Virus record (IMG/VR): IMGVR_UViG_3300031853_000007
Span: 48,311-112,310 of that record
Reading direction: 5' to 3' (one strand)
DNA length: 64,000 bases
Source: a virus
Taxonomy: Duplodnaviria > Caudoviricetes
Below the pieces are notes generated by a model. It did no database searches, had not been told where the DNA came from, and saw nothing but the letters and a program-made list of their open reading frames with translations. The translations under genes and the position numbers were made by a program. This document shows, one piece after another, positions 6,099 to 59,209 of the stretch; position 1 is the stretch's first letter, and each line of letters opens with the position of its first letter.

Positions 6099-7174
6099 TA
6101 AGTATCACCACCAAACAGTTCGTCTGCATTGATCGCCGAATCATCATCGTCATCATAAGTAGGAGGCTCAACCGTATATTTAGATACTTCTTCTTCATAC
6201 TCTTTTTCTAAAGCTTCGGTGTATTTATTCTTTACACCCATCATTCGACAGAAGTGCCCCAGTATCCAAACAAAAATATAATGTTTAATACCGTCTACAT
6301 CGCGGAATCTTTCATCGGGTTCGGATATCGGCTCCTCGTCTTCCCACTCTTTAATCTTCAAACCGAAACACTGATTATCCGTCAGCATCTCAGAGTCGGA
6401 CTTCTGCTTAGGTTGCAGATTCGCCGATGCCATACTTGTATTGAACTGGTTAACGAGCTTGGTAATGTCACCGCCTTGTTCAAGTGCGTTCTGAATTTGT
6501 AACTGAATAAAACAGATATTTTTTATGATTGCCTTCTGAGTTATCTCTTCGCACTCTACGCTCTCACTCCATTCCTTATACTTAGTTTCTAAGAAATGAT
6601 AGTCTCGATTCTCCAATCCGAAGCCCCAGAAATCCTTAGTCTCCTTGGATACATGTAGTTCCTCGACGGTTTCCGTAACCCTATACTGCTCCGTTATACT
6701 CTTCTCAATATCTTCAAGTATATTGTCAGCGTAAGTCTTATCAAGCAGAGACTCACGATTGTATAACAGCGTCAGATACTTAGTTACGCGGTTTCCGTCA
6801 TTAGAATCCGCATACGCACTCTCAGCTAGGAAGTCGTTATAATACACATCAAGCATCATACAAACACGTCTGTATGCGGCATGATAATCGGGAAACGTTA
6901 GTGACGTTACATTAAATAAAGCATTTACACAGTCGCTACAATAAGGCATACGGTTGTGATTATTGACATTCATCACGCTGTAGCTTCGCGGAAACAGAGA
7001 CGGATTATCCGAGTCCTTACCGCAAGAGCAACAATGGAATGTTTTCTCAGCCTTGTCACCCGCTTGAATCTTTAACATATCCTCGTTCATTTCTCGAACA
7101 CTTTTACGAACATATGTGCTCTTTGACCCCTTGGGGCGACCCATTGGCTTTTTAGTTAAATCTTGCTTGGGCAT
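6098..7174 (-). CDS. Zn-finger protein upstream of terminase (possible small terminase subunit)
   Basis: Likely start ATG 7174 (MPKQDL); CxxC pairs; overlaps terL start. Confidence 0.55.
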   Translation of the reverse strand: MPKQDLTKKPMGRPKGSKSTYVRKSVREMNEDMLKIQAGDKAEKTFHCCSCGKDSDNPSLFPRSYSVMNVNNHNRMPYCSDCVNALFNVTSLTFPDYHAAYRRVCMMLDVYYNDFLAESAYADSNDGNRVTKYLTLLYNRESLLDKTYADNILEDIEKSITEQYRVTETVEELHVSKETKDFWGFGLENRDYHFLETKYKEWSESVECEEITQKAIIKNICFIQLQIQNALEQGGDITKLVNQFNTSMASANLQPKQKSDSEMLTDNQCFGLKIKEWEDEEPISEPDERFRDVDGIKHYIFVWILGHFCRMMGVKNKYTEALEKEYEEEVSKYTVEPPTYDDDDDSAINADELFGGDT

Positions 7175-16688: not shown

Positions 16689-16772
16689 TGGATTCTAGGG
16701 GGGAATGCTTGGATTGTAGGGGGGAATGCTTGGATTGTAGGGGGGAACGTATGGATTTCAGGGGGGAATACT
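16689..16772. repeat. Iterons: 4 x 21-bp TGGATTNNAGGGGGGAANNNN
   Basis: Copies start at 16689, 16710, 16731, 16752, directly upstream of rep. Confidence 0.88.
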
Positions 16773-56600: not shown

Positions 56601-57626
56601 TTGGAAAGAGTTAAGTTATCGGTTAACGAACTGTTCAGTGGTATAGGAAATCAGGTTAGAGGCATCAGAGACACCAATCTTTTTGATGTGACAGTAGCGT
56701 GTACTTCTGATATTGACAAAGATGTAATGGTTTCATATGCAGCTATTCATAACGGTTTGACCAATGAAATGATTGAGAGTTATTCAGACTACCCAAGTAG
56801 GGAGCGAATGGCACAGGATTTGCTTGATAGAAAGATAGGGTATGATTTCAAGAATAACAAGCCTTATGATTGGAATAAGAAAGCAAGAAGCAAAAGCAAA
56901 TACCTTGAAAAGTGTTGGCTTGCCATGAAGTTGTCAAACAATCTTGGAGATATAAGCGGCATTGAAGAATTACCATATGCTGATCTGTGGACAGTTTCGT
57001 TTTGTTGCCAAGACATATCTGTCGCGGGCAATTTGAAGGGGTTTGAAGAAAATAGTGGAACAAGAAGTTCTCTTGTTTGGCAGCAGATAAGACTTCTTAG
57101 AAATTCAATCGCCAAGAATGAAGCTCCTAAGTATATTATGTTCGAGAATGTGAAGAATCTTGTGGGCAAAAAGTTTAAACAAGAATTTGATAGGTTAGTC
57201 AACGTTCTTGATGAACTTGGGTATACAACTTATTGGGAAATCCTCAACGCTAAGAATTGCGGTATTCCTCAGAATCGTGAAAGAGTCTTTGCAATCTGTA
57301 TTCGTAAGGATATAGACACAGGTAAAATGACTTTTCCAAAACCTTTCGATAATGGTCTTAGACTTAAAGATGTTCTTGATGATGTAGTAGATGAAAAGTA
57401 TTACATAAACAATGACAAGGCAGATGAGCTAATAGACGAGCTTATAGAAAATGGAACATTGTCCGAGGAAACATATCCTGTTGCTTCAAGAGGTAGATAT
57501 ACAGATGATAATTCTACTGAGCAGAATATTGAAGTAAGAACCGAAAGTGTCGCAAACGCATTGACTACTGTTCAAAAGGACAGTATGTGTTTAAAATGCA
57601 GCGCACCGAACAGGGTAAGTCGCTGA
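56601..57626 (+). CDS. C5 DNA methyltransferase, N-terminal part (motifs I-VIII plus first TRD-like module)
   Basis: ELFSGIG, SFCCQD (PC variant), ENVKNL, PQNRERVF. Confidence 0.92.
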   Translation: MERVKLSVNELFSGIGNQVRGIRDTNLFDVTVACTSDIDKDVMVSYAAIHNGLTNEMIESYSDYPSRERMAQDLLDRKIGYDFKNNKPYDWNKKARSKSKYLEKCWLAMKLSNNLGDISGIEELPYADLWTVSFCCQDISVAGNLKGFEENSGTRSSLVWQQIRLLRNSIAKNEAPKYIMFENVKNLVGKKFKQEFDRLVNVLDELGYTTYWEILNAKNCGIPQNRERVFAICIRKDIDTGKMTFPKPFDNGLRLKDVLDDVVDEKYYINNDKADELIDELIENGTLSEETYPVASRGRYTDDNSTEQNIEVRTESVANALTTVQKDSMCLKCSAPNRVSR

Positions 57627-58656
57627 GAAAAGCATATGAGTCACATGAAATAAAGCATGGTTTCAATGAATATCGAGAACCCGTTTTGAGAAATGATGGT
57701 ATGACAAACACAATTTCAACAGTTCAGAAAGATAACTTGTTAGTAGAGTGTAATGGGGGGGGGCAGTTGCAACTCCCAATCGACCTCACACTTAACGCTC
57801 CAAGAGCAATCGACCGAGCAAACTGTATCAAGGCAAGATACGATGCCGGAATCTCGAATTTCAGGCAAGACGGTACCGGTGTTATTGAGTTGCAAAGGAA
57901 CAAAGTTTGAGAAATTTGTTGAGTTTTGCTCTACCCTTATGGCGAGAGATTTCAAGGGATTCGGGAACCAGTCAATGACAGGAGTGATAACAAATGACTC
58001 AAAAGATAAATGACTCTACCGATTCAGTAATATTGGGGAGACTTATCCCCAAGAGCAACAAGATACATCAAAACCAAGAGGTATTATCTATTTGTGGGGT
58101 GGGAATAACTTTGAAATCAACAGATTATAAAAATCCTCCTAAAATTCTTGTTTTATGCGATATGGAAGTGGGGGGGCAGCGTGGAAGAGTGTTTAGTAAT
58201 CAAGGAATAATAGGAGCGTTGTCAGCGACTGACTGGAAGGATGCTCCTAAGTGTGTTGTAAAAGAAATAGTAAAGAAAGATGATAATGAGTAGTCCATAT
58301 GATCTACTTTCTCCAGATGATGATGAAAATTATGTAAGAGTAAGACAAGCAACAAAGACTGGTTATATACTCTGTCCTATAAATGGTGTGGCTGACTTAT
58401 CATTTCCATCGAGCAAGCTACGCCGAGGACGAGTTCAAGGTGGGGGGGGGCATAGCTCCTACCATAATGGCAAGTGGTAATTGCTGTTTGTATAGAATTG
58501 AGAGAGTTGAGGATAATAATGAATCAAAACAAACCTAATATTCTTGGGACAATATACGATACCAAATGTGACAATGCTTTTGCGGCAGGACATGGTGCCG
58601 TATATGATCCACAGAATATAGCACCGACTTTAGTAACCGCAACGGGGGGGCAATAA
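57587..58656 (+). CDS. Array of short overlapping ORFs encoding methyltransferase TRD-like modules
   Basis: TNTISTVQKD, ANCIKARYDAG, CSTLMARDFKG, ITLKSTDYKNPPK, GALSATDWKDAPK, RRGRVQ..IAPTI, IAPTLVTATGG. Confidence 0.75.
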
Positions 58657-58942
58657 GCCAATGAGTATTGATAAGAAGAAATTTAGAATAAGGAAACTTA
58701 CGCCCACAGAATGTTTAAGACTGATGAGCGTTCCTGATGAAGATATTCAGAAAGTTAAAGATATAGGAATGTCCGATAGTCAGATGTACAAACAGGCAGG
58801 AAACAGTTTGGTTAGTAATTGCGTTGAGCTGATTTTTGAGCATCTTTTCAAAGCTCAGTATCAAGATGATTTTAAGTGTTATGACGAAAATTTTCAGTAA
58901 ACCCCACAGATCATAATGAAAGTTCTGCCCTAAGTGGGGGGG
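57755..58942 (+). repeat. Five poly-G tracts, each followed by CA (G9 57755, G7 58170, G9 58442, G7 58644, G7 58936)
   Basis: Read directly from the sequence. Confidence 0.9.
58661..58900 (+). CDS. C5 DNA methyltransferase, C-terminal part (motifs IX-X)
   Basis: RIRKLTPTECLRLM, YKQAGNS. Confidence 0.9.
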   Translation: MSIDKKKFRIRKLTPTECLRLMSVPDEDIQKVKDIGMSDSQMYKQAGNSLVSNCVELIFEHLFKAQYQDDFKCYDENFQ

Positions 58943-59209
58943 CAACACCAATCGCTGTATACAAGCAGGCAGTCTTGACTTCGGCAAATGGAGTAAGATG
59001 CACGAAAGCAGCAGAAGATATTATAGCACACATGGAGTTGCACCAACACAGCACACCTGTGGTGGTGGAAATATCGAGAGTAAGATAATTGAGGATAATG
59101 AATAGCGATTGTTTTGGGTCTAGCTGCAATAATCACTTGTGGCATCGTAGATCTTATAGATACTATTGGTTCTGCACAACACGACAATAATAAGAAAAGG
59201 GGTAATTAA

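Follow-up and report, generated by a model that had tools for sequence, protein, structure and literature searches.

The locus analysed here lies at positions 56601-59105 of the window (the whole 64,000-nucleotide stretch of DNA examined, part of a 112-kb contig of a rumen phage of bovine gut or rumen origin) and contains a C5 cytosine DNA methyltransferase in pieces; the parts of this locus described below are on the plus strand. Its catalytic half, made of motifs I-VIII and a variable-region module (T1), occupies one listed open reading frame (ORF) in frame 0 (56601-57626), which ends in ...TTVQKDSMCLKCSAPNRVSR* and matches PF00145 with E = 6e-45. ELFSGIG, FCCQD, ENVKNL and QNRERVF are visible in its translation. 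Motifs IX-X are not on the polypeptide of motifs I-VIII. They were found in a separate C-terminal ORF in another frame (58661-58900; PF00145, E = 2.3e-9, profile positions 271-324), so that the enzyme is split. Between these two ORFs, and just 3' of them, about nine short stretches resembling variable-region modules are distributed over three frames and several ORFs. Tandem modules on one polypeptide, as in the SPR/phi3T enzymes, were not observed in the window; in relatives L003 and P0062 the modules occupy one frame. A further hallmark of the locus is its G tracts. Five runs of at least seven Gs occurred in the 64-kb window, all on the same strand and all inside a 1.2-kb stretch of this one locus, as compared with about 1.4 expected in the whole window from an independent and identically distributed composition.

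The tract that received most attention is a G9 at 57755-57763, where three readings of the following DNA diverge. Module T2 (57587-57754, frame 2, ending in ...RTEQGKSLRKAYESHEIKHGFNEYREPVLRNDGMTNTISTVQKDNLLVE) runs into it. With nine Gs, frame 2 continues into module T3 (PIDLTLNAPRAIDRANCIKARYDAGISNFRQDGTGVIE, 57764-57910), which ends at the TGA 57908-57910. With eight or eleven, the DNA of T3 is read in frame 0 as a stop-free linker rich in Ser, Thr and Gln (SCNSQSTSHLTLQEQSTEQTVSRQDTMPESRISGKTVPVLLSCKG, 57765-57902), followed by module T4 (KFEKFVEFCSTLMARDFKGFGNQSMTGVITNDSKDK, 57903-58013, frame 0, TGA at 58011-58013). With seven or ten, frame 1 is entered (57763-57795) and, in this 'neither' state, translation gives AVATPNRPHT before the TAA 57793-57795. 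Frame 2 as a whole (57587-57910) reads ...TVQKDNLLVECNGGGQLQLPIDL...ANCIKARYDAGISNF...V*, T2 reaching the tract as ...TNTISTVQKDNLLVECNGGG and T3 leaving it as QLQLPIDLTLNAPRAIDRANCIKARYDAGISNFRQDGTGVIELQRNKV. Frame 0 is open over 57747-58013 (GGGSCNSQSTSHLTLQEQSTEQ...CSTLMARDFKGFGNQ...DK*) and, past the Ser/Thr/Gln-rich stretch, shows T4 as KFEKFVEFCSTLMARDFKGFGNQSMTGVI.... When the tract length was changed in silico, products counted from ATG 57596 were of 65 (G7), 138 (G8), 104 (G9), 66 (G10) and 139 aa (G11). The first-pass annotation, in which T3 and T4 were called 'module A' and 'module B', had thus accurately described the G9 reading with its stop at 57910 and the G8/G11 reading with its stop at 58013; it had also announced an early stop for G7 and G10, which does occur, but after 10 codons rather than a few.

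Both frames are open together over 48 codons at T3. When T3 was resampled synonymously with the codon usage of the window, the +1 frame came out stop-free in 2.1% of trials, as compared with 0.16% for the +2 frame. The codons used in T3 include ATC for four of five Ile and CTC or CTT for three of five Leu, and it is through these choices that the +1 frame is devoid of TAA, TAG and TGA.

The three readings were also encountered in nature. A search of metagenomes with the protein of the T2+T3 ORF recovered 55 homologous protein clusters, which were sorted by the residues following VQKDN. Twenty-nine displayed T3 followed by a stop (98-107 aa), 14 displayed the linker and T4 (133-149 aa) and five or six belonged to the early-stop state (61-66 aa), ending within about 10-15 residues; these natural sizes agree with those of the in-silico products. 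Among metagenome proteins entering the linker frame, 14 of 15 reached the stop of T4. The difference between states lies at the tract, as illustrated by two forms of a window-like sequence, P0036 (ECDRGGSCNSQSTSHLTLQEQ...) with linker+T4 and P0001 (ECNRGGQLQLPIDL...) with T3. Junction residues were NRGQ, NRGGQ, NGGGQ or NRGGGQ in the T3 state, corresponding to G runs of varied length, and NRGGS or NGGGR in the linker state, while relatives with (GA)n displayed ERE to ERERERERER. Tract lengths equivalent to G5 through G11 were each fixed in different assemblies. A scan of metagenomes with the T2+T3 protein yielded only five loci. One relative, L002, from another rumen phage and 82% identical, carries (GA)7 in place of the G9 of the window; it now reads from T2 through the linker into T4, and its T3 is intact in the other frame.

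The first-pass annotation would have been contradicted by a module B translated only from its own start, ATG 57753. This ATG is not conserved: relatives display AAT-AGG-GGG..., (GA)n or 4-, 5- or 7-nt repeats at its place, which indicates that T4 needs no separate start, and T4 was reached in them only by continuation from the upstream ORF.

More distant relatives were collected by tracing the T3 core ANCIKARYD.GISN in IMG/VR contigs and in metagenome-assembled genomes (MAGs) of Treponema, Agathobacter, Ruminococcus, Herbinix and Bacteroidales. Scoring covered 74 loci with 55 distinct T3 DNAs over a 35-codon core. Homologous loci had been proposed as the place to see whether the alternative frame across module A stays free of stops, and it did: the +1 frame over the core was open in 51 of the 55 distinct DNAs and the +2 frame in 0 of 55, against a chance expectation of 0.02-0.06 for an open +1 frame, all state and frame counts being taken from assemblies of phylogenetically related loci that are not independent trials. 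Two frames are thus open over T3 DNA, and this is conserved beyond chance. Within 120 nt upstream of T3, a pattern search detected a repeat in 44 of the 55 distinct DNAs, and among the other loci several have a 7-nt repeat or a short remnant not caught by this pattern. The repeats include G9, A9, (GA)n, (GACA)4-15, (GAAC)12, (ACAA)5, (AGAGC)3-13, (AACGG)3 and (AACAG)11, so that at least nine kinds of repeat underlie one and the same layout. The +1 frame of most loci then enters a T4-type module (TLMARDYKG..., TLRARDYKG..., AIMSRDYKG... or another type) followed by a stop.

Four loci without a switch upstream of T3 (L087, L090, L101 and L114) served as controls and displayed one to five stops in the +1 frame. 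L087, an ordinary enzyme encoded by a single ORF, has T3 in frame between its motifs VIII and IX; it lacks a repeat and has five. L090, where T3 and T4 are in tandem in one frame and a repeat remnant lies between them and not before T3, has two. The second frame is therefore held open exactly where a repeat precedes T3.

Comparison of the 44 distinct repeat-bearing cores (mean pairwise DNA identity of 77%) gave protein identities of 77.5% in the T3 frame versus 58% in the +1 frame, and differences at T3 codon positions 1, 2 and 3 numbered 5959, 4999 and 11755. These patterns show purifying selection on the T3 frame only, the +1 frame being just kept open, as a linker would be. The absence of a conserved sequence proper to the linker, together with the fact that no specificity is known for T4, would also suit an ON/OFF switch acting on T3 only, with the +1 reading into T4 as a tolerated by-product devoid of function. 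Such a switch needs no open second frame, and is hard to reconcile with one kept stop-free over about 45 codons in 51 of 55 lineages and not in controls, or with the T4-type module and stop that most loci have in that frame. T4-like modules are moreover normal in-frame variable-region modules elsewhere: L004 has them in its intact enzyme, and L090 and P0053 have them in tandem with T3. We consider a switch restricted to T3 unlikely.

Repeat lengths varied between sequences that are otherwise near-identical. L103 and L104 share identical T3 DNA, yet the former displays (GACA)7 and an early stop versus (GACA)8 and the linker+T4 reading in the latter. Likewise, identical T3 DNA was preceded by 8, 6 and 11 units in L129, L135 and L154, and by 8, 11 and 7 units in L140, L151 and L165. 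Loci L172 and L173 from Treponema MAGs (around positions 1420-1500) carry (GAACAGA)n before identical T3 DNA, with unlike unit numbers and frames. In their current state, 26 repeat-bearing loci read T3, 24 read the linker and T4 and 11 stop early, and the alternative that is not in use was intact in all of them but one. The repeat lies within the reading frame, sets the frame downstream of it and changes in length.

Other repeats were noticed in these relatives. The beta ORF of L172 and L173 starts with a (GACAAGACAA…)-type repeat encoding DKTRQDKTRQ. In many relatives, a (TTAC)5 repeat (L083:1755-1774, L086:1566-1585) encodes a conserved FTYLLTYSFPC just before motif IV and might turn the entire enzyme ON or OFF. 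In L085, a frameshift coincides with a G6 run (2935-2940) of the N-terminal domain.

Two other origins of the states bear on this polymorphism. The states could be sequencing or assembly artefacts, as homopolymer lengths are error-prone and differences between assemblies could partly be due to misassembled repeats. Yet error cannot produce a conserved stop-free second frame, and differences in state are also present at 2- to 7-nt repeats that are shorter than a read. For the window itself, a Logan contig of the probable source run, though not an independent sample, reproduces the sequence exactly. Taken together, an artefact appears extremely unlikely. Alternatively, the RNA polymerase or the ribosome might slip on the G9 in a non-heritable manner, each genome giving T3, T4 and truncated products in fixed proportions. 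A homopolymer of nine Gs is long enough for some transcriptional slippage, a process established for A/T runs, and the locus may already make use of a translational -1 shift at T_TTA_AAA (see below). This possibility is nevertheless improbable: at the equivalent junction, relatives have repeats with units of 4, 5 and 7 nt in up to 15 copies, which shift the frame only by DNA slippage and thus argue against slippage of RNA polymerase or ribosome, and the unit number differs between assembled genomes, the equivalents of G5-G11 included. DNA slippage is the reading retained below.

A second peculiarity of the window lies upstream of the switch. T1 and T2 are located between the catalytic domain and the G9 tract, T2 being in the -1 frame relative to T1, and the cassette and the catalytic ORF are therefore in different frames. 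The sequence at 57590-57596, T_TTA_AAA, is a candidate -1 slip site from frame 0 (T1) to frame 2 (T2). From the reading frames, the cassette would need a -1 shift at these positions or else have to act as a free protein of 104 or 138 aa. Of 11 protein clusters at 78-99% identity, 10 retained the junction TGT_TTA_AAA_TGC, and all of these end in ...SMCLKCSAPxRVSR*. P0115 displays an in-frame fusion exactly at this junction (SMCLK-YERTEEGK...) and continues through T2, the repeat, the linker and T4, while P0117 and P0120 are fused through to T3. Some 130 nt around the junction are about 99% identical to L002, with flanks at about 80%, and a variant in run X3 lacks T1 and keeps the junction. Junction conservation and fusions are consistent with a programmed -1 shift. 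RNA folding downstream of T_TTA_AAA gave a weak z of -1.2 and no convincing stimulator. An alternative would be a separate start for T2, at GTG 57587 (preceded by AAGGA 6 nt upstream) or at ATG 57596.

Other mechanisms were considered for the locus and discarded. Every later inter-module junction is a +1 junction, yet regular +1 ribosomal frameshifting does not fit, as the P-site codons (GTT, AAA, GAG, ACC, CAA and CCC) show no common way to re-pair and, at three junctions, the next module comes with a ribosome-binding site and ATG of its own. Stop-codon reassignment was rejected because junction stops are TGA, TAG and TAA alike. With 200-400 nt between them, the G runs are too distant for a standard intramolecular quadruplex, which makes recombination driven by G-quadruplexes improbable.

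The split organization is shared with relatives, where an alpha ORF commonly comprises motifs I-VIII, the repeat and T3 or T4, followed by a stop. In most of them, a beta ORF codes for further modules and motifs IX-X; its ATG overlaps the T4 stop by 9-21 nt, and the 'GVI' codons of T4 contain its ribosome-binding site, GGAG. In the window, the next ORF (57980-58293 with its upstream signal, frame 1; modules T5-T6) has AGGAG at 57980-57984 and ATG 57994, overlaps the T4 stop by 20 nt and begins where relatives begin their beta subunit. The T5-T8 ORFs have their own starts. The beta region of the window is broken several times before motifs IX-X, with two breaks at G tracts (58442 and 58644) and two without repeats, and the enzyme as assembled may be partly off. 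A complex model of alpha and beta from L108 reached a score of 0.87, the best of three controls being at 0.00, and this score may simply come from likeness to solved monomeric C5 enzymes; in complex modelling, 51 of 78 solved complexes and 2 of 108 mismatched pairs attained the 0.87 mark. Contacts agreed by at least 78% between model runs, partner pLDDT was at least 47 and T3 residues touched the motif IX region. T3 and T4 had no sequence match among solved structures and characterised specificities, and the structure search aligned the catalytic domain only.

A gene in such pieces invites the suspicion of a decaying methyltransferase whose frames and G runs are debris, all the more as the window locus extends over three frames with several breaks away from repeats, and as L002 lost the segment between two G tracts. 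We regard decay as very unlikely, considering that the same breaks are conserved over lineages 78-99% identical, and that the modules are open, under purifying selection, and intact in both alternatives whatever the state (the single locus mentioned above excepted).

The other four tracts accompany the module region. G tract 2 (G7, 58170-58176) lies within T6 and is in frame in the window; G tract 3 (G9, 58442-58450) lies within T7 and is out of frame. Both are the ends of a deletion: the segment between them is precisely what is missing from L002 and from a contig of run X4 (L002:5593-5600 versus window 58170-58450), a loss that joins the first part of T6 to the last part of T7. G tracts may thus also be recombination or deletion points at which modules are reshuffled. 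G tract 4 (G7, 58644-58650), between T8 and motifs IX-X, is out of frame in the window. Its counterpart is G10 in L002, of equal phase to the G7 of the window, and homologous tracts are G8 in L085 (in frame) and G6 in L086 (shifted).

Several observations on the surroundings may be added. Two Logan contigs of run X2 end and begin precisely at 58650/58651, the 3' edge of G tract 4, as would be expected if its length were heterogeneous in that sample. Behind the fifth tract (G7, 58936-58942), past the stop of the motif IX-X ORF, is an HhaI-type recognition module (…SRRYYSTHGVAPTQHTCGGGNIESKIIE, window 58917-59105); L002 has two HhaI-type modules past its own stop, one with a G7 tract (6313-6319) at its end. 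About 1 kb downstream of its C5 locus, L002 also carries a G11 tract (6929-6939) in a second, unrelated methyltransferase-like gene (...VQVLTGGGGMRVVHSHIDEG...). At the T4/T5 junction of the window (57991-58019), AAATGACTC occurs twice, 16 nt apart, and loss of one 16-nt unit would place T4 and T5 in the same frame (…GVITNDSTDSVILGRL…). Elsewhere in the window (16690-16770), four G6 runs exactly 21 nt apart are part of a tandem repeat (…ggattgtaGGGGGGaatgcttggatt…) unrelated to the methyltransferase locus. No match to the locus came up in a blastn search of deposited phage genomes.

The two-frame layout, its conservation, the polymorphism of the repeat and the natural occurrence of three states are best explained by a hypermutable G9 at the point where two alternative target-recognition modules meet in a C5 cytosine methyltransferase of a phage. 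Replication slippage would alter the length of the tract, and each length class would lead to its own product: T3 and a stop; the T3 DNA as a featureless +1 linker, then T4; or a stop after 10 codons. In the proposed organization, the modules end the alpha half (motifs I-VIII) and the beta half (motifs IX-X) is translated separately, with which either product would presumably assemble in this phage. The catalytic core would be intact in every state, the recognition module alone being changed. Since the alpha core and beta would be made in every state, the switch should alter specificity instead of turning the enzyme off. A phage population would then hold a heritable, reversible mix of methylation patterns, and the probable gain is a hedge between escape from methylation-sensitive host restriction enzymes and avoidance of methylation-dependent ones.

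That repeat length switches between T3, T4 or neither, through DNA slippage in a split C5 methyltransferase, is in our view quite probable. It agrees with the original proposal of two-frame DNA, mutually exclusive modules and three states, which the open +1 frame of relatives and the three natural states support. The layout stood as proposed, but the cassette appears as the C-terminus of a split alpha subunit, an additional -1 shift would be needed here, and we infer, from the sequences, both the translation of the two products and their distinct specificities. With somewhat less confidence, we favour the broader view that phages and prophages of gut and rumen share an undescribed split, multi-module C5 methyltransferase in which slippery repeats choose among modules in overlapping frames, giving combinatorial methylation patterns without a recombinase. 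In the window, the three states at G9 could then be combined with four other G tracts.

If this is correct, phages as well as bacteria vary methylation specificity by means of contingency repeats. The design principle would be the exchange of recognition domains by a single repeat, made possible by a module without stops in a second frame. It would explain the frameshifted look of many phage methyltransferase genes in annotations and provide a natural library of short C5 recognition modules. It would also bear on host range and on the arms race involving methylation-sensitive versus methylation-dependent restriction in gut and rumen communities.

Among known systems, Type III mod 'phasevarions' and other repeat-controlled methyltransferases are ON/OFF only, bacterial and of the N6-adenine type. 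Like the switch proposed here, they rely on slipped-strand mispairing of coding repeats, leading to reversible and heritable methylation heterogeneity. Literature searches yielded no description of the present layout in phage C5 methyltransferases, which does not prove its absence. For the split, the closest counterparts are M.AquI and M.EcoHK31I, natural two-subunit C5 enzymes that are active in vitro, fragment complementation being documented (PMC3404938). Likewise, motifs I-VIII, together with some of the variable region, are apart from motifs IX(-X), and the genes overlap. Unlike the present locus, these enzymes have fixed specificity, no repeats and no alternative modules.

For the modules, the Bacillus phages SPR, phi3T, rho11s and H2 code for multispecific C5 methyltransferases (Trautner et al. 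1996, PMC450048, cited in PMC12707154). They are also phage C5 enzymes in which several short recognition modules follow one another between motifs VIII and IX, and which have a presumed role in self-protection against host restriction. SPR/phi3T modules are on a single polypeptide, in one frame, all active together and free of repeats, whereas those of the window are spread over frames and ORFs and appear to be gated by repeats.

For specificity change driven by repeats, precedents are the poly-G of NgoAV hsdS and the 'extended' hsdS of Mannheimia and Fusobacterium (PMC7383803), and the H. pylori Type IIG enzyme JHP1272 / HP1353-54, where a second homopolymer changes specificity (PMC3936762). 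There too, a coding repeat between recognition domains picks the domains that are translated, and specificity changes while the enzyme stays active. They differ in kind, hsdS being a Type I S subunit and JHP1272 a Type IIG enzyme instead of a phage C5 methyltransferase. They also add or lose a downstream domain (full-length, truncated or extended forms), in contrast to the exchange of module for module proposed here, which has three states because the DNA of the first module is open in a second frame. The present locus stands apart by its combination of traits: a split phage C5 enzyme, a first module overprinted by an open second frame, and many kinds of repeat.
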